Shown here in pieces: positions 5,601 through 50,119 of a stretch of DNA of 64,000 nt. The position numbers were made by a program, and so were the translations under genes. The notes beneath the pieces are model-generated. The model was given only the letters and a program-made list of their open reading frames with translations. It ran no database searches and had not been told where the DNA came from. Within the stretch, counting starts at the first letter, position 1; every line of letters begins with the position of its first letter. Source of the DNA: Candidatus Adlerbacteria bacterium (lineage in GTDB: Bacteria > Patescibacteriota > Minisyncoccia > Phycocordibacterales > SBAW01); NCBI GenBank assembly GCA_903851045.1, contig CAINNF010000008.1, positions 299-64,298 of the forward strand, read 5' to 3'.

Positions 5601-6657
5601 ACGCCGACTCCAACCCCATCACATATCGACCCGACGGCATCGGGAGGTCATTGGTGATACGACGCACCACGTATGCGACCGCTGCCCCCGCCATGACCGC
5701 GGCGGTGCCGAGCTGCGGAACACCCGAGAGCGTCTTCCCTATCTGAGTAATCGAGTCCCACTGTCGCATGGTGAAATACTTCGGGTCGATGATCTCGTTG
5801 GCCATCGCGATAAACTTCTCGCGCGTAATGTGCTCCAACTCCGCTTCGGCGAAATGTACGCGCCCATGGAAAATGGGCCGCCCGGGCTCTTGGTCAAACC
5901 GCTCGACGTCGATGATAATGCTGTCGCCGTTGTCGGTCACCATCACGACCGGTATACCCAGCTCTTGGCACACGACGCGCGAACGCAGCTTCATCTTGAT
6001 ATCGTCCATCTCGTCGACAAACACGTCGAGCCGTGGCGACCCCATAAATTGCTGCAACGTGTCGTGCGTCACGCCCGCTGGCCACTGCTCGAGAGTAATA
6101 AACGGATCCACCTCCCATGCGGCGCGCGCAGCGATAGTGACCTTACTTTCGCCGACATCAAGCAGCGTCGCGCGGATGCGATTGAGATTCGTGATTTCTA
6201 AGATGTCCGGGTCAGCGATCTTGATATGCTGTGGGCCACCGGTCGCCACCAATGCACCGAGCGCCGCCGAACCAACCGACAACCCCGCAATGCCGACCGT
6301 CGCTGCACGATAGCGCTCTTGCTCTGTTGGAGTAATCAAATTGCGATTGCGCGCGGTGCGGAGCCGGTGGTAGAGAGCATCGCTTGGCGTATGCACCGCC
6401 ACATCGCGCCACGGATAGTACACCCACACGCCCGCGTCGGTATGCTCGCGGATAAAAGATTCGACCACACTCGTGTCCGCAGCACTCTTAGATACCTCGG
6501 GATGCTCGATAAAAAATAATTCGCCCAAAGCGCTGTGCATCACATCCATACGTCGAGCACTCGCTGGCACCGCTGACTCAGTAGTAAAAAACACCGGCCT
6601 CTGCGCTGACGTTGTCTCCATGCGCACAGTATACACCGACTCCACATCGCAGAGCAC
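5587..6657 (-). CDS. ThiF/MoeB/HesA-family E1-like adenylyltransferase with about 110-aa N-terminal extension
   Basis: 356 aa. Rossmann nucleotide motif VGIAGLSVGSAALGALVATGG, then IKIADPDILEITNLNRI, which is typical of the E1-like superfamily. Confidence 0.75.
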   Translation of the reverse strand: MLCDVESVYTVRMETTSAQRPVFFTTESAVPASARRMDVMHSALGELFFIEHPEVSKSAADTSVVESFIREHTDAGVWVYYPWRDVAVHTPSDALYHRLRTARNRNLITPTEQERYRAATVGIAGLSVGSAALGALVATGGPQHIKIADPDILEITNLNRIRATLLDVGESKVTIAARAAWEVDPFITLEQWPAGVTHDTLQQFMGSPRLDVFVDEMDDIKMKLRSRVVCQELGIPVVMVTDNGDSIIIDVERFDQEPGRPIFHGRVHFAEAELEHITREKFIAMANEIIDPKYFTMRQWDSITQIGKTLSGVPQLGTAAVMAGAAVAYVVRRITNDLPMPSGRYVMGLESAFTPV

Positions 6658-6872
6658 GCTGGTGTTGGGCGCACAATCATCTCGACCAGATTACTGACAC
6701 CGTGTGGCGCGATAAGCGTAACATCTCCATCACTGGTGGTTACGGCGACGACGGTTGCTGTCTCTGGCCATGTCGAGATAGCATCTGACGAAGAGGCGAA
6801 CGGGGAGGAGCCATTGACGACATGCATCCTCGCTTCGTTTTTGCACGACCGTGCGATATCGAATTGACGAAA

Positions 6873-35713: not shown

Positions 35714-36544
35714 CTAGACGATGTCGCCAATCAGCATGCCGTGGTCACTGCCGGGCGAGAAGTCGAGACGAAAATTCTCGACACTGAACGGATAACCTTT
35801 GGCGCCCGAAAACACCATGATACGGTCCGGTTTGGCGCCGAATTTCGCGGCAGGATGGTGCGGTGCGAGAGTTGTTTGTATCTCTGCGGGCAAAAAGTCG
35901 CGCCCATCCCACTCCTGCAAACTTGCGATCACCTCACCACCTCGATCAGTGTTGGTGTCGGCTGCGAAGACGACGCCACCATGCTGCATGCCTTGGGTGT
36001 GCAAGAATCTCCCAAGAATGCCCGTACTTCTTCTCTGGAGATCCGTATGCACACCACCACGAGTCCAGAACCCGTGGTGAGTCGCGACTCGAATAGTGCG
36101 GCCATCATGAAGCATGACGGTCGCAGCGAGCACCACGCGACTCTCGGTCTCGAGTACGAGCTGGTCAGCCAATTCACTCGGTTCGATGCGCTGGTTGTCG
36201 TTACCGACACCCTGCAAATCTCGCAGGATCCCATCTCCATGGGTGAAACGGAGGGCTCTATCCACCAGCGGGAAGGTTGAGACGATCGCGATCCCCACCG
36301 GCTCACGCCGACCGAAGATGAGATGGTCGGTCATGGGCACAAAAATGGACTGAAACTGCCACAGGTAGCCAAGCACTGAAGCCGGCACGTCCTGGAGACA
36401 CAGGACATGCGCAGGCGGCGAAATAGCACCGCTCCCCACTCCCTTGACCCACGCGAGTGTCGGTGACACGTCGTACGGATCCTTCCCCAAACAACGACCG
36501 AGATTGAGGGTCGCTATACGCACAGGACTCTGTTGACCGAACAC
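35714..36544 (-). CDS. Endonuclease/exonuclease/phosphatase (EEP) family protein
   Basis: 276 aa. IATLNLGRCLG...HVLCLQDV and a C-terminal GSDHG motif. Confidence 0.65.
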   Translation of the reverse strand: MFGQQSPVRIATLNLGRCLGKDPYDVSPTLAWVKGVGSGAISPPAHVLCLQDVPASVLGYLWQFQSIFVPMTDHLIFGRREPVGIAIVSTFPLVDRALRFTHGDGILRDLQGVGNDNQRIEPSELADQLVLETESRVVLAATVMLHDGRTIRVATHHGFWTRGGVHTDLQRRSTGILGRFLHTQGMQHGGVVFAADTNTDRGGEVIASLQEWDGRDFLPAEIQTTLAPHHPAAKFGAKPDRIMVFSGAKGYPFSVENFRLDFSPGSDHGMLIGDIV

Positions 36545-36648: not shown

Positions 36649-36904
36649 TGTTACCGCGGGCGTTGTGTTGTGGTCTTGTCTGTGGGGGCGTCTTCGATCT
36701 GTCGGGGGTGCTCTTTTTCTGGGGGCACGGTCATGAGTACGGTGCTTGGGATCGGCGAGGGTTCGATCGTTATCGTGTGATTTGGTGAGAGGTGCAACTC
36801 TTCGAACGAGAGTTTCGTCGCGAGCGGGGTCTTGCCGAACAGGCGCAGGATAGCGTTGGCGATGTCTATCTTGGTTGGGTAGTACGTCTCGGTCAGGGCG
36901 GTCG
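36649..36904. repeat. Direct repeat copy 1 (about 256 bp, about 97% identical to 46250-46506): displaced 3' end of the E1-beta gene
   Basis: Direct alignment of the two stretches, from gttaccg(c/t)gggcgttgtgttgtggtcttgtctgtgggggcg to ctcggtcagggcggtcg, shows only a handful of substitutions. Confidence 0.85.
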
Positions 36905-36968
36905 GAAATGGGAAATGGGGAGGCGTCCGTTTAATCACGATTTCTTGTGGTCTAATGTTAATCTCCAT
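36651..36968 (-). pseudogene. Truncated 3' fragment of the PDH-E1-beta-like gene. It encodes the last about 85 aa, identical to the C-terminus of 46253..47407, with a new junction-derived N-terminus
   Basis: The translation ...TALTETYYPTKIDIANAILRLFGKTPLATKLSFEELHLSPNHTITIEPSPIPSTVLMTVPPEKEHPRQIEDAPTDKTTTQRPR is identical to the tail of the 384-aa E1-beta ORF. Confidence 0.6.
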
Positions 36969-37050
36969 CCGCTATGCGAATACTGTGCAGCATAGCGGGA
37001 ACCAATTACTACACCACACAATTTTCAAATTAAACGGACGCCTCCCCATT
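36914..37050. repeat. Perfect 22-bp inverted repeat (aatggggaggcgtccgtttaat ... attaaacggacgcctccccatt) flanking an about 93-bp spacer with an internal 9-bp-stem hairpin (ccgctatgc/gcatagcgg). It sits exactly at the left island junction
   Basis: Read directly from the sequence. Also preceded by a tandem ggaaatg ggaaatg. Confidence 0.6.
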
Positions 37051-37103
37051 ATCCGCTTCCTGATTGAAGCTAATATAAAAATAATTTTTAACACTTGATA
37101 TGT

Positions 37104-37574
37104 TTATTGGTTAGAAACTAGATGCTCTGCTTTCTGATCAAGAGTAATTCTAGGATTTAATTGTGTAAGTTCTTTAAGAATTTTAGAGGTTGCTTTATTT
37201 CCATACGCTTCCAAAGTCCCAATTATACTTTCGCGTACCACACCTCTCTCATCAATATAACTAACCCTAATATCTGTGAGCATTCCAACAAATGATTTAC
37301 GAAATTTAACAGATTGAATTTTTGAAGTTTCAATAGTCTTGCTAGAAATCCATTTAATCGCTCTTAATTTGTGATCAAAAATTGTAATACGGGCAAAAGA
37401 TGACAGAACTGGAATAATTAGACAGAGAATAAGCGCAAAGGACATTCCTTTTACCATACTCTCCACCGTAGCTGTCCCGGAAGTTATTCCAAGGAGAAAA
37501 AAGGCAAGAAAGAATACTCCAAATATCGTCCAAATGCCCCTTATTAAACTTGGTTGCGGTTTGTAGGTGTTCAT
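37104..37574 (-). CDS. Small 2-TM membrane protein, candidate immunity protein for the Rhs C-terminal toxin
   Basis: 156 aa. Two N-terminal hydrophobic helices (IWTIFGVFFLAFFLLGI, MSFALILCLIIPVLSSF), then an about 90-aa soluble domain. The start codon is 2 nt downstream of the Rhs stop, and the AT-rich codon usage matches the island. Confidence 0.5.
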   Translation of the reverse strand: MNTYKPQPSLIRGIWTIFGVFFLAFFLLGITSGTATVESMVKGMSFALILCLIIPVLSSFARITIFDHKLRAIKWISSKTIETSKIQSVKFRKSFVGMLTDIRVSYIDERGVVRESIIGTLEAYGNKATSKILKELTQLNPRITLDQKAEHLVSNQ

Positions 37575-37576
37575 GA

Positions 37577-40500
37577 TTATTGTTTCTTAGTTATTATACT
37601 TGGAGTTGAGTTTGCAACACCAAATGGATTGGTCGAAGGTGTAGATGAGAACGATCCGAATGATGTACTTGATTTAGAACTATTTGAAGCAGCCACGGCA
37701 GCAACAAAACCAGTTGCTACCATTTGTGTGCCTACTCCTACAAATTCTTGTGCTCCATTCATGGTAGTGTGTGATCCTGTATAGAACGCAGTGGAGCCAA
37801 AACTTGGAAGCCTTCCTGGGGTACCCGGAACAGTACCCTTTAATACTCCTCCTGTCACTCCAGTCACTACAGATTGATAAGCAAGGGTCCCGTAGTTAGT
37901 CTGCTTATTTGTAATGTAGTTTACTCCAGCAGTGGTAACAAAGTTAGCTGCTCCTGCTGTGACACCAACAGCAACAGCTCCGGCTCCCAATATACCTGCG
38001 GTCGCAGAACTTGCACCAACCACGGCACCCGTCACAGCACTACGTGCATAATCTTGAGGCGAAGAAAGGTTTGAGTAAAAATCACTTGGCCTTAACCCAT
38101 TTTGGTTGATATTGCCTAATACATCGGAACCATATTGGCTAACGCCTCCAGCAACAAATCCTACTCCAGCTGCGATACATATAACTACAGCAGGACCTGC
38201 ACATCTCCCGTTTGGATCTGATTTATTTATTGGATTGTCATTTGCATAGGAATATGAGTTAAGACTTTGAGGATCAGAAAGATTTTGCTGAGTCTCCCAG
38301 AATACCGGGTCTTCGCTAATAAACTGACCGCGAGTTGGCGATTGATATCGGGCCTGCATGTAGTTTAAACCGCTACCCGCGTCATACTCAGTGCCAGCAT
38401 ACTTGCGCTTCTCCCCTTGGTAGGCGCCTGCCTTCGTGTCGAGTCTGGTTTGTCCATACGGATAGTAATCAAGCGTCTCGATGACATTACCCGCACTGTC
38501 AGTAATGATGTTGGAGCCAGTGAGATTGTCGGTCGCGATGTAGCGGACGGTGGTGGTTGCGGTGGTGGTGCCGCCGGTGGTTGATGTAGTAACTAGTGGC
38601 TTGAACGTCGCCATGACTGCGGCCCAGGGTCCGCTGGTTGTGGTGGTGAGTTTGGCTGCTGTTGTTGAAGCGGTGGTTATGGTCGTGTCCTCGGTCGCGA
38701 GTCGCTCGTGGGTGTCGTTGTCGTCTTGGTGTTGGCGCACGGTGTAGCTGGGGGCGGGTGTCCAGGTGTCCCCCGTAGTGGCGCTCCATGCGGCTCCTAC
38801 GTAGAGTTCACTGCCGAGTGTGGTGGTGACATTGCCGGGGTTCGGGTAGCCCGTTGCTCCCGTACTGGACGCTATTTTGTCCAGTGGTGAGGATGTCGCA
38901 ACGCCTGAGTACTCTTGGACTGCAATGGATGCGGCAGTAGCGGAGGTCACGGTGAAGGAGGAGCCTCCCGTGACGTTCTTCGCGTAGTAGAGGGCGACGT
39001 GGTCACCACCGTTGGTGGTGTTCACTGCTTCGTTGATCTTGGTATAGGTGTTGCCCTTGGAGTCGGTGATGTCGTTTGCGGGGAAGGTGGTGCCGAAGAC
39101 TGATACCGCAACAACGACGAGGTCGCCTTGGGTGACAGGGTTGGGGAAAGTGACGGAACCTATGGTGCTATCGATATTCCCTTGGACGAACGTGGGGGTG
39201 GAGGTAGCTGTGGTCGTGCCTCCCCCGCTACTGGTGGCGCTGGTATTCTCAATCGTTGCCAGGTCGAGATCGTTCGCGTAGATGTGCTTGGTGGTGGTGC
39301 CTACTCCCCCGAGTTGGACGTTGTAGAGCGTGTTAGGGGTGATGGTCGTGATGGTGCCTTCGGTGAACTTGATGCGATTGCCTTGGTAGTCGTAGGCGTA
39401 GGTGGAGGTGGCCAGGCCGTTGCCTGACTGGATGAGGCGGTTGTTGTAGTCCCAGGCGTAAGTGTTGGTGCCGTCGCTCAGGAGGTTGCCATTTTGGTCG
39501 TAGGTGAGCGTGGTGGTGGCGGTCGTGGTCGCAGTGCCTCCAGCGGCGGTTGTTGTGGCCGCCCGAAGTGCTACCAGGAGCATCGACCAGTCTTGGCTGG
39601 TTGCGCCAGTGTAAGTGTCGGAGTAAGTGCTGGTGGTGGTTGCTACCTGGTAGCTGGCGGCACCGAATATCGAGCCAGTGAGGTCTTTGTAGAGCGAAGT
39701 GCGACTGGTCGTCGCGTCGACCGTCGAGTAACGTGAAAGCGTGGCGGTCACGAGGTCTCCACCGGTAACATTGGAGAGACTGATGGTCGGGTTGCCGCTA
39801 AGGCCGGTCGCAGATGCGACCTTTTCGATCGGTGATACGGTGGCCACACCGCTGAAGGATGCGACCGCGAGCTTAAAGCCGTCGGTAGCACCCGTTACCG
39901 TCACCGACACCGTCTTAGAGCCAGTCGTTGTGGCGACAAGATACCACACCTCCGACGCTATGCCGACCATGCGAGTAGAGGTCGCTTTGGTGAACGACGC
40001 GCCGTTCCATGTGGCAGAGGTGATGGTGCCAGTGCCTCCGACATCCTGCCAGATGTCTGCATACAGGACGAGCATACTACTACTGGTCGCCACAGTCTGT
40101 GTCCACGTCTTGGTGACCGGGCCAGCGTTGTAGCCAGCGTTCGTACTGGTCGACGTAGCACCCCACACAACAGTCGAGGTCGAGACACCACCCGCCATGG
40201 TCGAGGTCGAGAAGGTCGTGAGCGCAGTCACCGCATCTGGATTCGCATAGTTGGAGCCTGTGTTGCCCGTGTAGAGATAACTACCCAAAGGGCCGCTGGT
40301 GATATTGCCCAGCGAGTCATAAGTGTAGGTTTGGTTGAAGGCTCCATTTCCAACAATAGCAGTCGATGCAGATAGAAGACGATTAAGACCATCGTAGGTA
40401 TACACAACCATTTGACCGTTCGCCAGGTCAGAGTTGTCGGTACGAGAAATGATATTACCATTTGGATCATAGACGTAATGTAGATCCTGCGTCTTTGTAT

Positions 40501-43500
40501 AATGGGTACTCGTCGCGAACGTGTTCGTTACCGTGAATGTACCGCCCATGGTATACGTGCAGATAGTATCAACACCGGAGGTGGAGGCTGTCCCGCCACA
40601 AGTATAGTCAGCGGCGTTCGCCGTAGGATATCGAATGATGACGATGCCAGACCCGCCCACGCCGCCAGGCCCATTATTCGGACTTCCGCCACCTCCGCCA
40701 CTACCGGTATTCGGAGTCCCCGCACCTCCACTGTAACTTCCACTTCCGTTGCCACCGCCTCCCACACCGCCTGTGCCTCCCACGAGCCCTCCGCCGCCTC
40801 CACCACCTCCCGCATAATATGTTGCTATACCTGTAATACTACTCTGTATACCAGTACCACCATTTGCACCATATCCACTCACGGTTGCATTATTGCCGCT
40901 TGAGCCTGCCCCTCCGCCACCGCCCGAGGCATTACCAACCCCGGTACTTGCACCACCGGAATTCCCTTCCCCATTGACAGAACTTCCTCCTACTCCACCC
41001 GTTATATACCCTGTTCCAGCTCCGCCACCAGACCCTCCGCTTCCACCAGGAAGTGAGTGACCGTACCCGTCTGTTGCGCTGCCATATCCTCCGCCAGCCG
41101 CAGAGACCAGAATGCCGATAGAGCTCGTAGCTCCTTGCGAGCCATTACCAGAAACCGTCGCGGGTCCTCCGGCTCCGCCGCTTCCGACCGTCACCGTATA
41201 GGCTCCAGGCGGGATACTTATCGAAGAACTGCTTATGACCCCGCCAGCACCTCCACCTCCGCCACCATTACCGTTATTTGCACCTGAGCCACCGCCACCA
41301 CCTGCAACCACGAGAATTTGTACTGGGTTATTCTGTGCGATCGTTGTTGTTGCAGCCGCGTATGACAGCTTTGCTGTCAAGCGATACAACTGGGTAGGAT
41401 CGTACGTGTATGTTGTAGTAGCACCAGACCCAGTGATCACTTGTGTATATTGACCTGTCGGAATATATCCAGAGTACATCGCAAGTATTTTAGACGACCC
41501 GCCGTTCTCTTTTTCCCATACTGAATCAAGTAATCCTGCGCTATTAAAATTGTATTGCGCTTGAGCACTATCTGGATAGATTATAAGCGTCTGATTACCT
41601 TGGCGATCATATGAGTACTGTGTAACGAACGTTGTGCTCGTACCCACGACAGACTCGGACTCACCACTCTTGAGTCCAATCGGATTGTAGGTATATGCAA
41701 TTCTCGATGCGGTAGTGCTCGCAACACACAGTTGCCCGATACCGTTCATACACGAGTCGTAGGTATAGGTGACTTCTGTACCCGCTTGCCCTGTGTAGTC
41801 TTCAGTCAGTGAACGGTTGAGCGCATCGTAGGTGAAGTTTACCGTCTGGCTTTTCGGGTCCACTCGTTGTATGAGATTGCCGGCGGTGTCGTAGGAGTAC
41901 GACCAACTCCCAAATGTCCCATCACCCACCATATGAAGGTCTTCGGCCGTGAGTCTTCGATTGAGGCCGTCATATGTGAAATTGCGTACGTTCCCATTAG
42001 CGTCCGTGACCTTGGTAAGGTTGTTGTTAAGATCATAGATATACGTGATGGTTGCAGACGACGTGGCAGTACTATGTTCGACCACGGTGACTAAGTTACT
42101 GAACGCGTCGTTCGACAAATCTTTTACATTCCCGTTCGCATCAGTTATCACGGTGTGCCACGGCAGGTACGCATAGCCAGTCGTGCCGACCGCATTGACC
42201 GCAGTACTTACTCTCTGGAGCGAGTCATATGTATAGGTGGTGAGGAGCGAACTACTTGCCGTCGGCGACGTGTACGCGGTACTTGAGGCGAAATATGGCA
42301 ACGACTCTTTCGACAGGAGCGAGGCGGTGTTGTACACCGTATCCTTGACCACGTAGGTATTGTTCCCTGGCGCTTGAGTCCTCGTCTGTATCGTGCGCCC
42401 AAGCCCATCAAAATATTCATACGCCGTGGTACTACTTGCCGAAGACAAACGGTTCGTGGTGAGCGTGTATGACGGGAATGTGTTGTCCGTGTACGCGATG
42501 TCGGTCTTCACTACCAATGTGCTTGATGAAGTTTGGTCTGGCTGTTTGACCTGCACCAGACGCCCCACGGGATCATACACGTTCACATTCGTGAGGCCAT
42601 TTGGGTCTGTCGTTGTTGCGACCTTCCCGCTCGCGTAGTCGTAGTACACCTGCGAAGTCTGATTGAGTGCGTTCGTTGTCGACGCTGGGTAGTAGTTGAG
42701 AGCATCATACACATACTTCGTCAGATTACCGAGCGCATCAGTCGTCGTACCCACGAGCCCAAAGCTGTTGTACGCTCTGGTGGTACTCGCGTACGAGCTA
42801 CCCGATATCCAATTCTTTTCTTGGGTACGATTACCCGCACCTACTGATCCAAAAGAGAGGTTGTCGTAGAGATACTGCGTTTCCATTATTTTTGTACTAC
42901 CCACGTCCGTAAGAGTTATATCGTCGATCACATCCAGCGTTGTGCTGGCATTCGTCGCATACGTTATGTTTTTGATTACTGTATCACTCCCTACGTCCGA
43001 ATAGGTACCGTCCGAACTTCCCGACACCTCTCCCCGGTCGATCGACTGTGTCAAATCGCCCGTCGTGGTGGAATACGTATACTCGACCGCATGATCTTTG
43101 TGAGAGGAGCCCGAGCTATCAAATTCCTGGGTCATGTGTTTCGATAGGTACACGAATGAGCGACCGTTCCCTTCGTCAGTTGTATCCCATCGACTGAAAA
43201 TACGCTTCAGAAGAGTTCCGTCTGTCTTCTTGGTGTCTTGGCGAAAAACGTGCCCAATCTGTGGGTACCCGTCAGCCTGTTCACCGTCGCCAGCGGAAAC
43301 ACTATCACCCTGGTCATAATACGTGGTCAAGAGATAGTCTGGATGTGTTTCGGTGATTGTGTAAAAACCAGCAAATTTACGGTCCTGCGGAGCAGCGACA
43401 TTGAGATACAGCTTACCGCCACTGTAAGCATAATCCGTTTCTGTACTGTTTCCATCATTATCGTTGGTAACGATTTTCGACACCAACAGAAGTGACATGG

Positions 43501-44524
43501 GCATGTGCGAATTCGTGCCTGTTTGTGGTGATGGGACATATGACACCTGCGTATTGCCACCCTTGGGATAGGTAATTTGAGTAAGAACGTCTTGGCGGGT
43601 GGTATTGTTCCTTATATTTTCATTATCTGGTATCCCATCACCATCCCAATCGACATACTCGTTATTTCTTTCTGTGTCATATTGATCGTATATAGTCGCA
43701 TACGTGGGAAGCGCTATGGTACTTGTAGCCCAGCCTGAACCGGTATTTAACAAGACCAAATTAAATCCATTTGAAATTTCGGCATTTCCGTGTGTGTTTC
43801 CAGCAATGGGGCTATAGTATGAGCGAACAAAATCCGGCAATCCATCACCGTTAACATCCATAAACCGCATGCCTCGATCAAAAAACTGATGACTCCCTGT
43901 GTTGTAGTAATAGGTTGACGTTGCAAGATTCCAAACTGAAGAGCAGGTGCCTCCTCTTCCGACCCACCCTGTACCATTATTCAGACAAAAATAGGTATTG
44001 TTATTGTCCGAATACACCCAATCATCTAGACCGTCACTATTTACATCTATGAGTTGAGAGTTAGAAATAGGTCCATTAATGTCAGGCATGGGCATAACTG
44101 TCGGGAACAGGTCACTTGTTCTCCAACCACTTCCATTCCCTAAATAGGTACCGTCATAACCCTCTTCGTAAATATTTGATGCGTAGTCTACATATCCATC
44201 TCCATTGAAGTTTCCTAGGAGGCCAGCAGTAAGTGTGGCATATGCTCCTGGAAAATATACCGCCACAGGAGGTATGTTCAAGGTCGAAGTCGCAACGGAA
44301 GTGAACGTATACGCACCTGTTGTGCTTCCTGTGCTGTAATATAAAGTGGCACCATCGTGATTAACGTAACTATGCAAAACGTCGGCATATCCATCCCCAT
44401 TAACATCTATAAATCTTGTACCACTTTCATAAGCAGTTGTAGGATTACCAAAACATGCCAGGAATATGATGGGGGTGGAGTAACGCCGACACCATCTATA
44501 CCAAACGCAGGAGACCCGCCGCAC
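37577..44524 (-). CDS. Rhs/YD-repeat polymorphic toxin (TcB/TcC- or WapA-like), C-terminal portion of a gene split by a frameshift. FG-GAP/VCBS-like repeats, glycine-rich insert, YD repeats, Rhs core, glycine-zipper C-terminal toxin domain
   Basis: 2315 aa. Motifs FIDVNGDGYADVL, IDVNSDGLDDWVY, FMDVNGDGLPDFVR. Dozens of YD repeats (YTYDALNRSLTE, YVYDPNGNIISRTD, YAYDYQGNRI...). Rhs core YYPYGQTRLD...RYQSPTRGQFISEDP...DPNGR. About 208-aa hydrophobic Gly/Ala-rich C-terminus. Confidence 0.9.
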   Translation of the reverse strand: MRRVSCVWYRWCRRYSTPIIFLACFGNPTTAYESGTRFIDVNGDGYADVLHSYVNHDGATLYYSTGSTTGAYTFTSVATSTLNIPPVAVYFPGAYATLTAGLLGNFNGDGYVDYASNIYEEGYDGTYLGNGSGWRTSDLFPTVMPMPDINGPISNSQLIDVNSDGLDDWVYSDNNNTYFCLNNGTGWVGRGGTCSSVWNLATSTYYYNTGSHQFFDRGMRFMDVNGDGLPDFVRSYYSPIAGNTHGNAEISNGFNLVLLNTGSGWATSTIALPTYATIYDQYDTERNNEYVDWDGDGIPDNENIRNNTTRQDVLTQITYPKGGNTQVSYVPSPQTGTNSHMPMSLLLVSKIVTNDNDGNSTETDYAYSGGKLYLNVAAPQDRKFAGFYTITETHPDYLLTTYYDQGDSVSAGDGEQADGYPQIGHVFRQDTKKTDGTLLKRIFSRWDTTDEGNGRSFVYLSKHMTQEFDSSGSSHKDHAVEYTYSTTTGDLTQSIDRGEVSGSSDGTYSDVGSDTVIKNITYATNASTTLDVIDDITLTDVGSTKIMETQYLYDNLSFGSVGAGNRTQEKNWISGSSYASTTRAYNSFGLVGTTTDALGNLTKYVYDALNYYPASTTNALNQTSQVYYDYASGKVATTTDPNGLTNVNVYDPVGRLVQVKQPDQTSSSTLVVKTDIAYTDNTFPSYTLTTNRLSSASSTTAYEYFDGLGRTIQTRTQAPGNNTYVVKDTVYNTASLLSKESLPYFASSTAYTSPTASSSLLTTYTYDSLQRVSTAVNAVGTTGYAYLPWHTVITDANGNVKDLSNDAFSNLVTVVEHSTATSSATITYIYDLNNNLTKVTDANGNVRNFTYDGLNRRLTAEDLHMVGDGTFGSWSYSYDTAGNLIQRVDPKSQTVNFTYDALNRSLTEDYTGQAGTEVTYTYDSCMNGIGQLCVASTTASRIAYTYNPIGLKSGESESVVGTSTTFVTQYSYDRQGNQTLIIYPDSAQAQYNFNSAGLLDSVWEKENGGSSKILAMYSGYIPTGQYTQVITGSGATTTYTYDPTQLYRLTAKLSYAAATTTIAQNNPVQILVVAGGGGGSGANNGNGGGGGGAGGVISSSSISIPPGAYTVTVGSGGAGGPATVSGNGSQGATSSIGILVSAAGGGYGSATDGYGHSLPGGSGGSGGGAGTGYITGGVGGSSVNGEGNSGGASTGVGNASGGGGGAGSSGNNATVSGYGANGGTGIQSSITGIATYYAGGGGGGGGLVGGTGGVGGGGNGSGSYSGGAGTPNTGSGGGGGSPNNGPGGVGGSGIVIIRYPTANAADYTCGGTASTSGVDTICTYTMGGTFTVTNTFATSTHYTKTQDLHYVYDPNGNIISRTDNSDLANGQMVVYTYDGLNRLLSASTAIVGNGAFNQTYTYDSLGNITSGPLGSYLYTGNTGSNYANPDAVTALTTFSTSTMAGGVSTSTVVWGATSTSTNAGYNAGPVTKTWTQTVATSSSMLVLYADIWQDVGGTGTITSATWNGASFTKATSTRMVGIASEVWYLVATTTGSKTVSVTVTGATDGFKLAVASFSGVATVSPIEKVASATGLSGNPTISLSNVTGGDLVTATLSRYSTVDATTSRTSLYKDLTGSIFGAASYQVATTTSTYSDTYTGATSQDWSMLLVALRAATTTAAGGTATTTATTTLTYDQNGNLLSDGTNTYAWDYNNRLIQSGNGLATSTYAYDYQGNRIKFTEGTITTITPNTLYNVQLGGVGTTTKHIYANDLDLATIENTSATSSGGGTTTATSTPTFVQGNIDSTIGSVTFPNPVTQGDLVVVAVSVFGTTFPANDITDSKGNTYTKINEAVNTTNGGDHVALYYAKNVTGGSSFTVTSATAASIAVQEYSGVATSSPLDKIASSTGATGYPNPGNVTTTLGSELYVGAAWSATTGDTWTPAPSYTVRQHQDDNDTHERLATEDTTITTASTTAAKLTTTTSGPWAAVMATFKPLVTTSTTGGTTTATTTVRYIATDNLTGSNIITDSAGNVIETLDYYPYGQTRLDTKAGAYQGEKRKYAGTEYDAGSGLNYMQARYQSPTRGQFISEDPVFWETQQNLSDPQSLNSYSYANDNPINKSDPNGRCAGPAVVICIAAGVGFVAGGVSQYGSDVLGNINQNGLRPSDFYSNLSSPQDYARSAVTGAVVGASSATAGILGAGAVAVGVTAGAANFVTTAGVNYITNKQTNYGTLAYQSVVTGVTGGVLKGTVPGTPGRLPSFGSTAFYTGSHTTMNGAQEFVGVGTQMVATGFVAAVAASNSSKSSTSFGSFSSTPSTNPFGVANSTPSIITKKQ

Positions 44525-45900
44525 GAAACAGAACCTGATATGGCGGTATCGTTTATACCATCCCCATTAGCGTCAGCGGAGACATTTGCTTGGTCGGCAT
44601 GATGACCAAAACCATTCACATTTGACCACGTAACTGACGTACTTGCATACTGAAAAGTCATTGCTGGTAAAGTGAGTTGGGTACCGTCGATGTTTTGACC
44701 GGTTTCCTGCACGCTTGATAAAAGTGAGCGATGATTATTATTCCCTACCGAGTATGAGAGAGCATACTTTCGAACAACATGACCGTTCATCTGAGCATCG
44801 ATCTCAGACACGCGACTATCGGTTATCACTTGAAAACCGTATTTGTAGCTTGCATACGGAACACTACTAGAAGCAAGCGAAAAACTTACACTCATCACAC
44901 CATCTGTCGAACCATGTCCTGTATATAAAATTTGTGAGGGAAATATCTGATTATTCTCCTTGGTATAGCTATATTTTATGTAATTATCGTTTACGTCTCT
45001 TACTTCTTCGAGATACCAACGCGATATGGCGGTCGAACTGGCAACGTCAAATTGTCGTGACTGCGTGGTGGTGCCATACTCGTAGCGGGTGCCATTCTTG
45101 TCATATGCGGTCCACGTATTATTTGAACAGACATATTTAACAAAACTTCCATCATCCACTCGAGCGTAATACACGCCAGGTGTCGATGTTGAAGTTGAGC
45201 TTGCAAGTTCCCCATTTATAGACGAACTAAAATAGGTGTCCGTAAAGAGTTGGTCCGATCCAATTTTATTTATTCTTTCGATGTACGGGATCGAGAGAGA
45301 CCACCCATACCCCACGATACTGTTGTCGTCCAAGTTTTGACTATTGTAGTTCAGAGACAAACTTGGCTGCATACCATTACGCCCCGGTGGGATATCCAAA
45401 GGTACCCCTTGTGTTAGAGCACCTGAAGCTGTATCTACTTTGGGTGATATGGTTTGGTATGTAAAAAGTGATGGATTAGATACGGTGGGTTGCCCATTCG
45501 TTCCCAAGGTCATTGGACTTAAGCTACTTTTTGTGTTTGTCTTACCGTTCGAGTCTTCTGTTGCGGTCGAATCAGACAAAGAAGAATTTTGAACATCAGG
45601 AGTGAGTGCTGTATTCGTATCACTCGTTGTGTCTGAAGAATTAGAGTCAGATTGTGAGGCTATACCTTGCACCGCACCTCCTGTAAATGAGCCTCCCATA
45701 TCCGATGGAGGGGTTGCGTCTGCGGCAGGTGGTGTTGGGTCGGGTATGATCGATGCGTCGGCCGCAGGCGGACTTACCACATCATCCGCAAACACAGGAG
45801 CGAGTGGCGTTACAAAAAACGTAAGAACCAGCAAAAACGCGACAACCTTTCTAAAGATGTTACAGCTTGTCGACCCAACAGCGAATGTCAGTGAATACAT
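44407..45900 (-). CDS. N-terminal portion of the same Rhs toxin gene: signal peptide plus SpvB/TcdB N-terminal domain. Joined to 37577..44524 by a 1-nt frameshift at a G5/C5 run (44471-44475)
   Basis: 497 aa. Signal peptide MYSLTF...VLTFFVTPLAPVFADDVV. SpvB-domain hallmark LSLNYNSQNLDDNSIVGYGWSLSIPYIERI. The ORF overlaps the next one by 118 nt in another frame. The upstream frame becomes nonsense after the poly-C tract and the downstream frame is nonsense before it. Confidence 0.8.
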   Translation of the reverse strand: MYSLTFAVGSTSCNIFRKVVAFLLVLTFFVTPLAPVFADDVVSPPAADASIIPDPTPPAADATPPSDMGGSFTGGAVQGIASQSDSNSSDTTSDTNTALTPDVQNSSLSDSTATEDSNGKTNTKSSLSPMTLGTNGQPTVSNPSLFTYQTISPKVDTASGALTQGVPLDIPPGRNGMQPSLSLNYNSQNLDDNSIVGYGWSLSIPYIERINKIGSDQLFTDTYFSSSINGELASSTSTSTPGVYYARVDDGSFVKYVCSNNTWTAYDKNGTRYEYGTTTQSRQFDVASSTAISRWYLEEVRDVNDNYIKYSYTKENNQIFPSQILYTGHGSTDGVMSVSFSLASSSVPYASYKYGFQVITDSRVSEIDAQMNGHVVRKYALSYSVGNNNHRSLLSSVQETGQNIDGTQLTLPAMTFQYASTSVTWSNVNGFGHHADQANVSADANGDGINDTAISGSVSCGGSPAFGIDGVGVTPPPSYSWHVLVILQLLMKVVQDL

Positions 45901-46249
45901 AAAAATAAAAAATTAGTGTCGCACCTCTACGCAAATAAACTGGGCTAACTATAAAGCACAAAATATTTTTGCAAATAAAAATTAGACGTAGGAGAAAAAT
46001 ATGCTACTTGTAAAAAATCTTCTCTTCCCGAGAAACCTTTATAAATGAATTATCGCTTATCCGAGATACTTTTGGAAAGCTCAACGTGATCAAGGCTATT
46101 TTAAAAATACACAAAATGCGAATTGGAAAAATATTTTGTCAAACAAACCAAAAAGTTATCAACAGGTACATAATCCATCTCTCTTACAGTTAATGGAGAA
46201 GACTTGGCAAACTACCACCTGTACCAAAGGTACCCTTAGCGATCCATCC

Positions 46250-46506
46250 TTGTTACCGTGGGCGTTGTGTTGTGGTCTTGTCTGTGGGGGCGTCTTCGAT
46301 CTGTCGGGGGTGCTCTTTTTCTGGGGGCACGGTCATGAGTACGGTGCTTGGGATCGGCGAGGGTTCGATCGTTATCGTGTGGTTCGGCGAGAGGTGCAAC
46401 TCTTCGAACGAGAGTTTCGTCGCGAGCGGGGTCTTGCCGAACAGGCGCAGGATAGCGTTGGCGATGTCTATCTTGGTTGGGTAGTACGTCTCGGTCAGGG
46501 CGGTCG
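46250..46506. repeat. Direct repeat copy 2 (intact 3' end of the E1-beta gene), marking the right island boundary
   Basis: See copy 1 at 36649-36904. Confidence 0.85.
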
Positions 46507-47407
46507 AGGTGGGGCACGGGACGTCGGGGCACGACAGCGACACGGGGCGGGCCTTCAGTGTGATGTTGTGGTGCTGTGCCACGCGCGCGATGATCTCTGC
46601 GCCGACGCTGAACGCGCGGTGCGTCGTATCGACCGTGATGAGTCTGCCGGTCTTCTTCACCGACGCGAACACGGTCTCGTAGTCTATCGGGTTGATACTC
46701 ACGAGGTCGATGATCTCTACACCCGCGTGCGTGCCGATCAGCTCGCGCGCCTGGAGCGTCGCAACGAGTCCGTCGCCGTAGGTCACCACCGTGACCATGT
46801 CTCCCGTGACGACCACGCGTGCCTCATCGAGCGGCACCGTGTACGACTCCTCGGGCACCGCCTGTTTGGTCCCGTACAGCCAACGAGGTTCGAGCATGAC
46901 GACCGGGTTGTTGTCCGCGATAGCGGACGCGAGCAGACCTTTCGCCAGGTAGGGTGTCGACGGGATGACGACCTTCAGTCCTGGCACACTGCCAAAGAGC
47001 GCGTGGAGCGCCTGTGTGTGTTGCGGCCCATTCCCCCACTGCCGACCAAGGGCGATACGAAAGACGATCGGTACCGGGTTGCCGCCGCCGAACATGTAGT
47101 TCCACTTCGCCGCCTGGGTAAAGATAGGATCGTACGCGAGCATCGCGAACTCGACGCGGCCATGGTGCACGATCGGTCGCAGTCCGTTGATGGCGGCACC
47201 CACCGCCATGCCCGTGAACGCGTTCTCCGAGACCGGCACGTCGAGTATGCGGTCGGGATATTTTACCTTCAGCCCCGCGGTCGTCCCATCCGCGCCGTTG
47301 GGGTAGGAGACGCCAAGGCCGATGACGAAGACCGACTGGTCCTTCTCCATCGCCTGGTCGGTCGCCTCTTTCAGCGCTTCGGTGTATTTGATGATTCGCT
47401 CAGGCAT
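46253..47407 (-). CDS. 2-oxoacid (pyruvate/acetoin) dehydrogenase E1 component beta subunit (transketolase-like) with Pro/Thr-rich about 60-aa C-terminal tail
   Basis: 384 aa. Motifs VFVIGLGV...DVPVSENAFTGMAVGAAINGLRPIV...VVMLEPRWLYG. The tail SPNHTITIEPSPIPSTVLMTVPPEKEHPRQIEDAPTDKTTTQRPR is not part of a canonical E1 beta. Confidence 0.85.
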   Translation of the reverse strand: MPERIIKYTEALKEATDQAMEKDQSVFVIGLGVSYPNGADGTTAGLKVKYPDRILDVPVSENAFTGMAVGAAINGLRPIVHHGRVEFAMLAYDPIFTQAAKWNYMFGGGNPVPIVFRIALGRQWGNGPQHTQALHALFGSVPGLKVVIPSTPYLAKGLLASAIADNNPVVMLEPRWLYGTKQAVPEESYTVPLDEARVVVTGDMVTVVTYGDGLVATLQARELIGTHAGVEIIDLVSINPIDYETVFASVKKTGRLITVDTTHRAFSVGAEIIARVAQHHNITLKARPVSLSCPDVPCPTSTALTETYYPTKIDIANAILRLFGKTPLATKLSFEELHLSPNHTITIEPSPIPSTVLMTVPPEKEHPRQIEDAPTDKTTTQRPR

Positions 47408-49391
47408 AGACGTGTGTGGTTAGTTCTTGTTCGTTCGGGTATGCGGCTTTCTGTGCATCGTCGATAGCTGCGAGCACCTGGGCGCGCACGTCAGTGTCGA
47501 TCTGTGCGAGCGTCTCTTCGGTAACACCTTGGGTAAGGAGCGTCTGTCGCAAACGCTTGATACTATCGTTCTTCGATCGAACTTCGGGCGTATCCTCTTC
47601 GCGATACCCCTGTGCATCATCGAACAGCGGGGCGCTGTGCGCCATGTGTCGGTACGTCATGCACTCCAGGACCGCGGGGGTCTTGGTCTTTCGGATCGAC
47701 GCGACCAGCTCCTTCGCCTTCGCGAGCACGTCCTCGTAGTCGTTGCCGTCCGCTTTCTTGTACTGGACGCCGAACCCCGTCACGATGTGTTCGACATCAT
47801 ACTTGGGAGAGCGACGATCCTTGAGTTTGGAGTTGACCGAATAGAGATTGTTCTCGACCACCAGCAAGAGTGGGAGTTTGAACAGTGCGGACAGATTGAG
47901 CGTCTCGTACACGCCGCCCTCCTCCGACGCCCCGTCGCCGACGAACGCGACCGAGATCCCGCGCTGGTGGTTGTACGCTTGCGCGAACGCAGACCCTGCC
48001 GCGAGCGGGACGGCACTCCCGAGTATCGGCGTCGACCCGACGAAATTGACCGACTTGTCTATCATATGCATCGAGCCACCTTTGCCGTGTGCCACACCCC
48101 CTTCCTTGCCGATCATCTCGCGCACCATGGCGCGCAGGTCGCCGCCTTTGGCGAGATAATGTCCGTGCGAACGGTGGTTGCCCATCACCTTGTCCTGCGG
48201 CTGGAGCGCATCGCACACGCCGGTCGCGACCGCCTCTTGTCCCACATAAAAATGTACGAAGCTCATGATCTTGTGCTTGAGGTACAGCTGCGCGATCTCC
48301 TCTTCGGCGGCGCGCATGTAACTCATCTTGGTGTACGCGCGCAGGAGCGGCGATGGCTGCAGGTCGATGAGGATACGGCTCGCCTCGCCCTTGCGCACCA
48401 GGTCGATCGCCTCGTTGATCTTGTGGATCGGGACACGGTGCGTGATGAGATTGTCGATATTGAGCAACCCGCTTTGGTAGAGCTTGATGTAGCGCGGGAT
48501 CTCGATGCTCGGCGAGAATTGTCCGCCTTGCGTCGCCTTGATCATCTTGCCACTGCCGCCAAAGAAGTGGTTCGCGTTCTTCAGCTCCACCGTCTCGCCG
48601 GGCTTGGGTTGGCCGACCATGATGAAGCGTCCTGTGCCAGAGAGAAGTTGGAGCGTCTCTTCGATGCTGCGCGGACTCCCCGAGGTGTCGATGATGACAT
48701 CCACTTCTTTTATGCCGAACGCCTTATGGAGAGCCTCTTTGATCGACTCGTGCTTACCGTTTATATACAGGTCCGCGCCGAGCTGCTCGGCGACCGCCTT
48801 CTTACTATCATGGATATCGACGCTGATGATGGGGTACGCGCTCACCATCTTCGCCGCTTTGATGAGGTTGACCCCAAGCCCGCCTGCGCCGACGATCATG
48901 ATCCCTTCCCCCATCTTGAGATTCGCCTCCAAGTTCACGGTGCCAAGCGCGGTCGAGAGACTGCATCCCAAGAGCGCGCACAACTCCTCCGGTGTATCCT
49001 GCGGGACGGGCGTGATGCGGTTCTCCGACACGATGGAATATTCGCTGAACGTGGTGACCTTGCCGCTTTTGATGACTTTGCCGTTGAAGATGTAGGACGG
49101 AAAATCGGATTCGATACCATCCCCTTTGCGCCAATGCATGACGACCTTATCGCCCTTTTTTACCTTCGTCACGCCAGCACCGATATCCTCGACGATACCG
49201 CACCCTTCGTGACCCATGAGATGCGGGAGGAACGCCGCGTTGCCTTTGTGGCCACCGATCTCTTGGAGCTGCGAACCGCAGATGCCGCTCACCAACACCT
49301 TCACCAATACCTGACCGAACAAGAGCTCCGTCAGACCAACATCCGCGACCGTGAGCGGCGCATTGATAGCTTCGAGGACAGCGGCTTTCAT
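47400..49391 (-). CDS. Fusion protein: N-terminal Zn-dependent medium-chain alcohol dehydrogenase plus C-terminal TPP-dependent 2-oxoacid dehydrogenase E1 alpha subunit
   Basis: ADH half has MKAAVLEA...GICGSQL...HLMGHEGCGIVEDIG and GAGGLGV. E1-alpha half has YVGQEAVATGV...HRSHGHYLAKGGD...GSMHM...GDGASEEGGVYETLNLSAL...LLVVENNLYS. Continuous frame with no internal stop. Overlaps the E1-beta gene by 8 nt. The start is set at the internal MKAAVL. Confidence 0.8.
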   Translation of the reverse strand: MKAAVLEAINAPLTVADVGLTELLFGQVLVKVLVSGICGSQLQEIGGHKGNAAFLPHLMGHEGCGIVEDIGAGVTKVKKGDKVVMHWRKGDGIESDFPSYIFNGKVIKSGKVTTFSEYSIVSENRITPVPQDTPEELCALLGCSLSTALGTVNLEANLKMGEGIMIVGAGGLGVNLIKAAKMVSAYPIISVDIHDSKKAVAEQLGADLYINGKHESIKEALHKAFGIKEVDVIIDTSGSPRSIEETLQLLSGTGRFIMVGQPKPGETVELKNANHFFGGSGKMIKATQGGQFSPSIEIPRYIKLYQSGLLNIDNLITHRVPIHKINEAIDLVRKGEASRILIDLQPSPLLRAYTKMSYMRAAEEEIAQLYLKHKIMSFVHFYVGQEAVATGVCDALQPQDKVMGNHRSHGHYLAKGGDLRAMVREMIGKEGGVAHGKGGSMHMIDKSVNFVGSTPILGSAVPLAAGSAFAQAYNHQRGISVAFVGDGASEEGGVYETLNLSALFKLPLLLVVENNLYSVNSKLKDRRSPKYDVEHIVTGFGVQYKKADGNDYEDVLAKAKELVASIRKTKTPAVLECMTYRHMAHSAPLFDDAQGYREEDTPEVRSKNDSIKRLRQTLLTQGVTEETLAQIDTDVRAQVLAAIDDAQKAAYPNEQELTTHVYA

Positions 49392-49420
49392 TGGCTTGAA
49401 GTATAGTGTAAAACTAATCA

Positions 49421-50119
49421 ATGTCCAGCATCGTCGTGTACCACCCTGTCGGTCTAGGTGACCACCTCGCATGCAGCGGTATCGTGCGCACGTACGCCAC
49501 CACCCACGACCGGGTCGGGGTCTTTTGCCTAGAGCAGAACTACCCGTCGGTCTCCGCTCTCTACCGCGACCTACCGAACGTGACCGTGCTGCGCGTGCGG
49601 TCGCACCGGGACATACAGCGCTTCCGCTTGCGCAACGCGATGCATCTCACCCGCAATCATTACGACCGGGTACTCAACGTGCGGGTGCTCGACGAAGAGT
49701 CCGGTATCCAATACGAAAAGCAATTGTATCGATCCGCGAACGTACCGATCGAGAACCTATGGGACAAATTCTTGCTCCAACGAGACGCCGCGGCGGAGCG
49801 AGCACTGATGGAGAAGCTGCATGCACCCGGCGCATACCAGTTCATCCACGAAGACGCGCGCTTCCCGCTGACACCGACCAAATTGTCGAACCTCCCCGCA
49901 CTGCGACCGGACCTCGCGCTGACGAAGAACATCTTCGACTACTGCTCGGTCATCGAGTGCGCCCAGGAGATCAACGTCATGGACTCGTCGTTCATGTTCC
50001 TCGTCGATTGTCTCGACTACACTGCGCCGAACCAGAAGCGATTCATACACCGCTACGCTCGACCGAACATGCCGTGGAACCTGCCCCTCCTACGCAAGCA
50101 ATGGACCATACTCACCTAA
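49421..50119 (+). CDS. Hypothetical protein (possibly glycosyltransferase-related)
   Basis: 232-aa ORF with plausible codon usage. No confident family. Confidence 0.35.
   Translation: MSSIVVYHPVGLGDHLACSGIVRTYATTHDRVGVFCLEQNYPSVSALYRDLPNVTVLRVRSHRDIQRFRLRNAMHLTRNHYDRVLNVRVLDEESGIQYEKQLYRSANVPIENLWDKFLLQRDAAAERALMEKLHAPGAYQFIHEDARFPLTPTKLSNLPALRPDLALTKNIFDYCSVIECAQEINVMDSSFMFLVDCLDYTAPNQKRFIHRYARPNMPWNLPLLRKQWTILT

Follow-up and report, generated by a model that had tools for sequence, protein, structure and literature searches.

To our knowledge, very few membrane-targeting tips of Rhs proteins have been studied, and Tse5 is essentially the sole well-characterised one. Tse5 (RhsP1, PA2684) and Tsi5 of the Pseudomonas aeruginosa H1 type VI secretion system (H1-T6SS) combine an Rhs-encapsulated, pore-forming tail with an immunity protein of two transmembrane (TM) helices (PMC9637101, PMC10684867). 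The tail, Tse5-CT, is released at a DPxG aspartyl-protease motif; its 149 amino acids (aa), of which 32 are charged, include predicted TM and amphipathic helices, and it partitions into lipid, forms cation-selective pores and depolarises cells (PMC9637101, PMC10684867). The ionophore toxins of the CdiA-CT group (EC93 type) are alpha-helical tails with a putative glycine zipper in one helix, and they dissipate the proton-motive force (PMC11630599). EsxX and TelE, which are LXG toxins of the type VIIb secretion system (LXG/T7SSb), carry a C-terminal depolarising glycine-zipper domain, are countered in their extracellular form by polytopic membrane immunity proteins, and have orphan immunity genes (PMC12744356). 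Here we describe a C-terminal toxin domain (CT) on an Rhs protein, together with the gene that follows it, in a 64,000-nucleotide (nt) stretch of contig CAINNF010000008.1 from a Candidatus Adlerbacteria genome (GCA_903851045.1), referred to below as the window. In our best reading the locus encodes a polymorphic Rhs toxin and its immunity protein, the toxin being a TcB/TcC-like 'cocoon' built of a Sec signal, SpvB, an FG-GAP/beta-propeller and the Rhs shell. We put the probability at roughly 0.55 that the CT is a membrane-inserting, depolarising Rhs tip with a membrane-anchored immunity protein.

With Tse5 the locus has in common the Rhs shell, a tail that follows DPxG, the lack of a recognisable enzymatic domain and a partner with two TM helices. 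It differs from Tse5 in charge (12 of 208 residues in the window CT against 32 of 149 in Tse5-CT) and in its head, which consists of a signal-like peptide, SpvB and a beta-propeller and comes with no T6SS evidence, where Tse5 has a PAAR-like head and a T6SS. The immunity protein differs as well, having a pleckstrin homology (PH)-like domain beyond the two TM helices of Tsi5. A CT profile run against the sequences of the PDB, a set with a Tse5 chain in it (deposition of the Tse5-CT chain itself being unconfirmed), gave no Tse5 match at E ≤ 10. The CdiA-CT ionophores and CdiI are, as we propose for the window pair, polymorphic-toxin tails with integral-membrane immunity proteins. They use CdiB/CdiA two-partner secretion in Gram-negative bacteria and a separate entry domain that engages AcrB, SecY and others, and we liken them to the CT by description only; the ionophore group most like the CT has no Pfam family. 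EsxX and TelE, set apart likewise by description, have an LXG/T7SS carrier and one short zipper region, whereas the window CT has an Rhs carrier, a conserved four-helix core of ~165 aa and a PGRLPxFG...HT motif.

The toxin tail and its paired gene

The CT comprises everything between DPNGR, the expected cleavage motif at the end of the Rhs core (for the role of DPxG-type motifs in Rhs proteins see PMC9637101), and the stop codon of the Rhs body open reading frame (ORF) at 37577-37579 (Table 1). G, A, V, S and T make up 63% of the tail and charged residues 5.8% (12 residues). The conserved core has a grand average of hydropathy (GRAVY) of +0.45, compared with -0.32 for the remainder of the Rhs protein, and it exceeds every 172-aa window of the body (highest value +0.34); within the domain, hydropathy rises above 1.5 at residues about 1-25, 60-89 and 154-172 (Cys2108 = 1). 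The first-pass annotation of this DNA had placed the tail at 37577-38205, which is right to within 2 nt (tail 37580-38203 plus the stop codon), and its estimate of about 208 aa after the Rhs core and DPNGR proves to be exactly 208. The peptides that it quoted from this segment (AAGVGFVAGGV, GASSATAGILGAGAVAVGVTAGAANFV and VTGVTGGVLKG) are all present in the translation of 37580-38203, and its description of a hydrophobic, Gly/Ala/Val/Thr-rich tail agrees with the composition and core GRAVY given here. Its further suggestion, that the tip matches no family that it recognised and looks unlike a nuclease or deaminase, is supported by the searches. The CT had no match in Pfam, NCBIfam, PHROGs or PADLOC, a Pfam scan of 33 members of its family found none, PDB sequences searched with the CT by phmmer and by profile gave chance matches only (two for the profile at E ≤ 10), and no similarity to nucleases or deaminases was detectable in the tail.

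A word-indexed homologue search with the single CT as query returned no relatives, and the same search with a CT profile returned 4 proteins only, the candidates having been saturated by low-complexity words. When 1.84 billion cluster representatives were searched exhaustively with HMMER, 74 relatives came out at E ≤ 1e-3, 26 of them at E ≤ 1e-10 (clusters counted at 50% identity). In almost all 74 the match lies at or near the C terminus. A DPxG[x] motif stands 112-235 aa before the end in about 40 of the 74, contig-end fragments included (for example NPITKSDPNGR, with C as the next residue), and the CT follows the motif in every relative where it was found. Six of nine CT carriers scanned against Pfam had any match, all six to Rhs and three also to SpvB; as far as checked, the CT family is carried by Rhs proteins alone. 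The aligned core of the family extends over ~170 residues in an alignment of 33 sequences, in which G15, G19, Y52, G59, G130, P133, G143 and H145 are invariant. At least 90% of the sequences keep Q23, D27, T117, G119, R131 and F140, and the consensus at column 63 is G; beyond residue ~172 the tail is variable and of low complexity. Many members also have a cysteine pair just after the cleavage motif, in the form of C..C at CT positions 1 and 9, CPQC or CxEDGC, and this pair could form a disulfide bond, as would suit a tail that is outside the cell after its release.

We examined the linkage of the downstream gene to the CT from both sides. From the toxin side (L001 with two cassettes, L002, L006, L010, L012 and L014), the next ORF always encodes a protein of 143-163 aa that starts with two hydrophobic helices, ends in a soluble part and aligns with the immunity protein of the window. 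From the immunity side (L016, L018 and L020), the upstream gene encodes a SpvB-FG-GAP-TcdB_midN-RHS protein of 2,300-3,100 aa that ends in the CT family (local hmmsearch, E 1e-40 to 1e-48). The two families are paired in 10 of 10 distinct loci, and the CT and immunity identity matrices of the ten pairs are correlated (r = 0.88, Mantel p = 6e-4); among these pairs L002 holds both the closest toxin to the window CT (47%) and the closest immunity protein (24%). A hidden Markov model (HMM) built from the other immunity subtype alone still recovers the window protein from end to end (28 bits; E 7e-5 at a nominal database size of 1e6). The site after the cleavage motif, family conservation, linkage with co-divergence, orphan cassettes and predicted folds were all computed, and as judged from sequence the CT tail and the ORF downstream of it form a conserved toxin/immunity pair. 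That the small membrane protein adjacent to the tail should be its partner had been proposed on first pass, and its position 2 nt after the stop codon, together with its conservation in every locus examined, favours that proposal. The cassette defines a CT family of about 74 clusters and an immunity family of at least 68 proteins, both outside the libraries searched, and the pair is small, with clear conserved positions.

Orphan or remnant cassettes were found at L001, L018, L021 and L023. At L001 (contig_14525, positions 4201-7400, in a metagenome-assembled genome (MAG) labelled Alphaproteobacteria), two tandem orphan CT and immunity cassettes stand without an Rhs body, with three transposase genes within 13 kb around them; either they moved horizontally out of Patescibacteria or the contig was binned wrongly. 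Long arrays of orphan Rhs tips and small downstream genes occupy L018 (9001-14634) and L021 (2549-9322), and they hold tandem immunity paralogues, an HNH-type tip and a DUF2750 protein. At L018 the tandem immunity genes are followed by further orphan Rhs tips. Between them, L021 and L023 hold a CT remnant accompanied by an immunity gene, and a solitary immunity gene within another Rhs array. Such arrays are typical immunity/toxin reservoirs, and the orphan and remnant cassettes are the usual debris of polymorphic toxins. The named carriers of CT and immunity genes are Ca. Sungbacteria, Ca. Saccharibacteria and Patescibacteria MAGs, with the Alphaproteobacteria-labelled MAG at L001 in addition, and named homologues of the immunity protein come from Patescibacteria, Parcubacteria and Sungbacteria. 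A genome scan with a 7-sequence CT alignment and one narrow pattern gave 4 loci, a figure that under-represents the distribution. The pair is found mostly in Patescibacteria, whose means of attacking hosts and competitors are largely unknown.

The immunity ORF begins 2 nt past the Rhs stop (TAA-TC-ATG) and has hydrophobic stretches at about aa 8-38 and 35-67. Its predicted model (predicted local distance difference test, pLDDT, 93) shows a TM hairpin followed by a PH-like beta-sandwich that has a C-terminal helix as its cap. The first-pass description of a 2-TM immunity protein holds for the hairpin and falls short of the whole, about 95 of the 156 residues belonging to the PH-like domain. The hairpin is present in 8 of 8 aligned paired immunity sequences and in the consensus of 53 homologues. 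Over these 53, the mean number of Lys plus Arg is 2.7 in the N-terminal tail and 0.06 in the 5-residue inter-helix loop, and because of the positive-inside rule the N terminus and the PH-like domain are probably cytoplasmic, with the loop outside. A profile search found 68 further proteins, all unannotated and none with a Pfam domain; among eight immunity members, one matched bPH_4, below the cut-off (E 0.055), and no significant bPH match was found. The NCBI and ENA gene calls reduce the immunity gene to 59 aa, starting at Met98, though the full 156-codon ORF is open, and the Logan record calls it in full; because of such fragment calls the family is under-annotated in public records.

Predicted structure and proposed mode of action

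An AlphaFold model of the CT core, computed from the 33-sequence alignment, is all helical (pLDDT 77, predicted template modelling score 0.66). Its four core helices (residues 4-35, 49-71, 76-97 and 104-124) have block-mean pLDDT values of 79-92 over residues 1-110 and 76 for 111-120; pLDDT is below 50 from residue 166 on. Across the family these helices contain 5-8% charged residues and 35-51% G, A and S. The nearest solved folds are those of NDUFA11, Tim22 and Tim17, which are membrane proteins with four TM helices. This four-TM family accounts for 11 of the 60 top structural matches, and many others are membrane proteins too, such as ECF S-components and TRIC. Nothing in the Foldseek search was significant (best E 0.63), yet NDUFA11 and Tim17 ranked first. 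The likeness is a fold resemblance of a predicted model, with no homology demonstrated. The first-pass idea of membrane-type helices accords with this model, whose helices are long, Gly/Ala-rich and charge-poor.

The glycine zipper that the same annotation had seen in the tail lacks statistical support in the single sequence. GxxxG occurs 6 times in the single CT against 4.3 ± 1.8 in shuffled sequences (z = 0.9), so that its spacing there is mostly an effect of composition, while [GAS]xxx[GAS]xxx[GAS] occurs 20 times against 12.4 ± 3.4 (z = 2.2, p about 0.02). At the level of the family, G15, G19 and G59 are invariant and G63 is consensus, and these conserved GxxxG positions in predicted helices 1 and 2 appear to be the only zipper signal of weight. 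In a 7-sequence sub-alignment G15, G19, Q23, D27 and N31 are all invariant, N31 being only about half conserved in the 33 sequences; from their i+4 spacing, these residues would lie on one face of helix 1.

Beyond these features, we infer that the tail inserts into the membrane and depolarises it, how both proteins are oriented, how the toxin is neutralised and that export depends on Sec. The carrier would be exported by Sec through its signal-like N terminus, and the CT would be its cargo, released from the Rhs shell after DPNGR. The released tail would then insert into the cytoplasmic membrane of a neighbouring cell, its four charge-poor, Gly/Ala/Ser-rich helices packing through conserved small-xxx-small positions and being followed by the conserved loop and an amphipathic helix, and the membrane potential would collapse through a pore, an ionophore or a leaky helical bundle. 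The immunity protein, predicted as a TM hairpin with its N terminus inside and a short loop outside plus a cytoplasmic PH-like domain, may counter the toxin within the membrane, at the cytoplasmic face through that domain, or both.

Several observations weigh against this mechanism. GxxxG is not enriched in the single CT, as described above, and the mean hydropathy of the core helices (0.6-0.8) is well under that of classical TM helices. The conserved loop and helix 5 (144-171) are modelled at low pLDDT (46-66). The polar residues Q23, D27, Y52, T117, R131 and H145 are invariant or nearly so and a 20-residue motif is kept, a pattern expected of a catalytic centre or a binding surface sooner than of a plain pore former. 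These residues, with the PGRLPxFG...AF(F/Y)xGxHT motif, would therefore also fit a catalytic or target-binding mechanism. The predicted cytoplasmic placement of the PH-like domain would also suit neutralisation of a toxin that acts in the cytoplasm. Finally, in the window the signal-like peptide and SpvB are not in frame with the Rhs shell, and this copy may be a pseudogene.

The polar conservation could belong to a membrane-embedded or interfacial enzyme that attacks lipids or lipid-linked precursors of the cell wall, as TelC and other Lipocone toxins or colicin M do, with the Gly-rich helices as a membrane scaffold and D27, Y52, R131 and H145 as the active site. We regard this as unlikely. 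In its favour, the polar residues and PGRLPxFG...AFFTGxHT are kept across sequences that are 25-43% identical, and the CT core has four helices, as do the Lipocone domains, which are four-helix cones found as toxin tips with TM or lipoprotein immunity (PMC12419801). No Pfam match to VanZ or other lipid-enzyme families was found among the 33 members, however, and membership of the Lipocone group was rejected: its signature has a His in H2, a Glu in H3 and an Asp in H4 (PMC12419801), a pattern not seen in the CT, where the conserved Asp is in H1 and the His in helix 5, and no Glu is conserved.

The same residues might instead form a protein-protein interface, the motif and the polar stripe G15-G19-Q23-D27-N31 being used by a tail that inserts and then kills by blocking a specific essential membrane protein or transporter, or that needs one as receptor, without a pore of its own. 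Although the dependence of contact-dependent inhibition (CDI) ionophore toxins on AcrB, SecY and YciB offers a precedent (PMC11630599), such a mechanism seems improbable to us. No candidate target is known, and any target would have to be broadly conserved, given that carriers are spread over several lineages of Patescibacteria and one Alphaproteobacteria-labelled MAG; nothing in the sequence, moreover, separates blocking from pore formation.

The modest hydropathy of the helices and the predicted cytoplasmic PH-like domain are also what a soluble helical-bundle enzyme of the cytoplasm would bring, its hydrophobic look being only the Gly/Ala/Ser/Thr-rich composition of the lineage. The Rhs body itself is 53% G, A, V, S and T, and 27 of 190 body windows are as charge-poor as the CT. 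Against this, the GRAVY of the CT core is the highest in the Rhs protein, the low charge of the helices is family-wide and extends beyond one organism, and the nearest folds of the model are membrane proteins. All 68 immunity homologues lack a Pfam domain and the TM hairpin is consistently present, and no enzymatic toxin family was matched in Pfam or NCBIfam. We therefore consider a soluble enzyme very unlikely and favour the membrane-inserting, depolarising tip.

The carrier gene and its surroundings

In the Rhs body ORF, Pfam and NCBIfam find FG-GAP, DUF6443, RHS repeats with a Gly_rich_2 insert, and the Rhs core; the CT is its last part. Its RHS repeats match PF05593 in 6 stretches (E 2.6e-22) and TIGR01643 (E 1e-12). 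The 497-aa ORF upstream encodes what was the head of this protein and is read in a different frame from the body; in intact homologues SpvB, propeller, Rhs and CT are in one ORF.

Table 1. Coordinates of the cassette, its carrier gene and neighbouring features in the window (positions counted from its first nucleotide)
Feature	Position	Strand	Details
Rhs body ORF	37577..44524	-	2315 codons from first possible start; Pfam and NCBIfam domains
Rhs repeat-associated core	38207..38467	-	aa 2020-2106; TIGR03696, E 3.3e-15, 56 bits against cut-off of 32.5
DPNGR	38204..38218	-	aa 2103-2107; expected autoproteolytic cleavage motif closing the Rhs core
C-terminal toxin domain (CT)	37580..38203	-	208 aa; Cys2108 directly after DPNGR
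CT aa 1-9 with Cys pair	38177..38203	-	from sequence
Conserved CT core	37688..38203	-	CT aa 1-172; predicted helices 4-35, 49-71, 76-97, 104-124
Most conserved CT motif	37766..37828	-	CT aa 126-146, PGTPGRLPSFGSTAFYTGSHT; consensus PxVPGRLPNxxTxAFFTGxHTQ
Variable Ser/Thr/Asn-rich CT tail	37580..37687	-	CT aa 173-208, last residues KKQ; unalignable across the family
Cognate immunity candidate	37104..37574	-	156 aa; TM hairpin aa 8-31 and 37-59, PH-like domain aa 60-156
Immunity TM hairpin	37398..37553	-	acidic outer loop of ~5 residues; hydropathy, model, 53 homologues
Immunity PH-like soluble domain	37107..37397	-	probably cytoplasmic; model, positive-inside statistics
Upstream head ORF	44407..45900	-	497 aa; hydrophobic signal-like N terminus and SpvB (PF03534, E 3.9e-18)
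Frameshift interval between head and body	44443..44536	-	blastx against three intact homologues switches frame
Gly_rich_2 insert	40628..41353		PF21722, E 1.4e-19; Rhs aa 1058-1299
~225-aa repeat, first copy	39500..40189		Rhs aa about 1446-1675
~225-aa repeat, second copy	38555..39244		Rhs aa about 1761-1990
105-aa ORF	36651..36968	-	no library match
276-aa ORF	35714..36544	-	no library match
ADH-E1 alpha fusion ORF	47400..49472	-	ADH_N/ADH_zinc_N and thiamine-dependent E1 alpha domain
Transketolase-like E1 beta gene	46253..47407		adjoins the fusion ORF

As the frame switch separates head from body, the toxin of the window may not be exported. The Rhs toxin gene of this genome is, on the sequence at hand, frameshifted unless a recurrent homopolymer error or slippage is responsible, and a C5 run in the stretch CCACCCCC (44471-44478) lies inside the interval. 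The window cassette could accordingly be a decaying relic, a toxin uncoupled from its head and from delivery, with only the immunity gene still useful, and we take this to be a serious possibility, if somewhat short of even odds. The frame switch at 44443-44536 is seen against all three intact homologues, the split gene calls are identical in the ENA, NCBI (GCA_903951275.1) and Logan assemblies, and related loci show a frameshifted Rhs gene (L002), a CT remnant and a lone immunity gene. On the other side, the split could also come from a miscalled homopolymer at the C5 run or from slippage of the ribosome there, and the three assemblies may share a sample or go back to related ones. Any inactivation would have to be recent, because both ORFs (497 and 2315 codons) are otherwise open without further stops.

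The body gene has two further features. The Gly_rich_2 domain is inserted in the middle of the RHS repeats, and strong GC-skew swings lie around this insert and over the flanking Rhs region, the sign change lying ~600 nt off, near 40000-40250. Before the Rhs core there is an unannotated domain of ~225 aa in two copies that are 29% identical and have in common the motif SGVATxSP(I/L)(E/D)K(V/I)AS. It was detected by BLAST only with composition correction off, composition-corrected BLAST giving no match, and it is also present in the Rhs fragment of L002.

The locus lies in an island of low GC (guanine plus cytosine) content at ~36750-46000, with GC of 0.34-0.50 except in the Gly-rich inserts, between flanks of about 0.6; the lowest values (0.34-0.37) are in the region of the immunity gene. 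The presence of the Rhs and immunity genes in such an island suggests horizontal acquisition. Of the two ORFs past the immunity gene, the nearer, of 105 aa, spans the GC transition at the edge of the island. No T6SS, PAAR or TcA-like genes were seen near the Rhs gene or in the related loci examined, Pfam scans of head and body found no PAAR domain, and tRNA and Rfam searches had no match in the window. Farther along, an unusual single ORF fuses a zinc-type alcohol dehydrogenase to a thiamine-dependent E1 alpha domain.

Relation to known systems

The order of domains in the carrier (SpvB, FG-GAP/TcdB_midN propeller, RHS shell and core) is that of the TcB-TcC (BC) cocoon of Tc toxins. WapA of Bacillus subtilis is a Sec-exported Rhs/YD toxin, and the window carrier has a signal-like N terminus in place of PAAR/VgrG. 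Unlike in Tc toxins, no TcA-like translocator gene was seen beside the window gene or in the related loci, and the cargo is a hydrophobic helical domain, where the cargo of the TcB-TcC type is an ADP-ribosyltransferase or a nuclease. The novelty that the first-pass annotation had claimed divides. The toxin family does lie outside the libraries searched, but the idea of a membrane-acting Rhs tip is known from Tse5-CT/Tsi5. The principle of an Rhs toxin with a membrane-active tip and membrane immunity being already established, the cassette overturns no concept; new are the two families, of toxin and of immunity protein, and the fact that both are concentrated in Patescibacteria. Rhs and other polymorphic toxins are a main source of new antibacterial activities.

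The resemblance of the CT model to the PRAT fold (Tim17/Tim22/Tim23, NDUFA11, OEP16) comes with an identity of only 12-17% and a Foldseek E of 0.6 or worse, and none of the 33 CT members matches Pfam Tim17 (PF02466) at E ≤ 0.1. It is quite unlikely, in our estimate, that the CT, instead of being a conventional pore former, is a toxin-borne Tim17/Tim22/NDUFA11-like fold that opens a lipid-facing cavity or acts catalytically through D27, Y52, R131 and H145, used by Patescibacteria episymbionts against hosts or rivals and countered by a PH-domain immunity protein that captures its cytoplasm-exposed loops; if true, this would be both a new toxin mechanism and a new immunity principle. For the immunity protein, the TM hairpin followed by a PH-like fold resembles the bacterial PH-domain membrane proteins (bPH_2/bPH_4, YdbS/YdbT type), for which an immunity role is not established. 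If protection needs the PH-like domain, a kind of bacterial PH-domain membrane protein that is so far uncharacterised would gain a function. The most extensive structural match to the immunity protein is eukaryotic EROS (8kei_D), which aligns over 126 residues, compared with 74-99 for the other PH-like matches.

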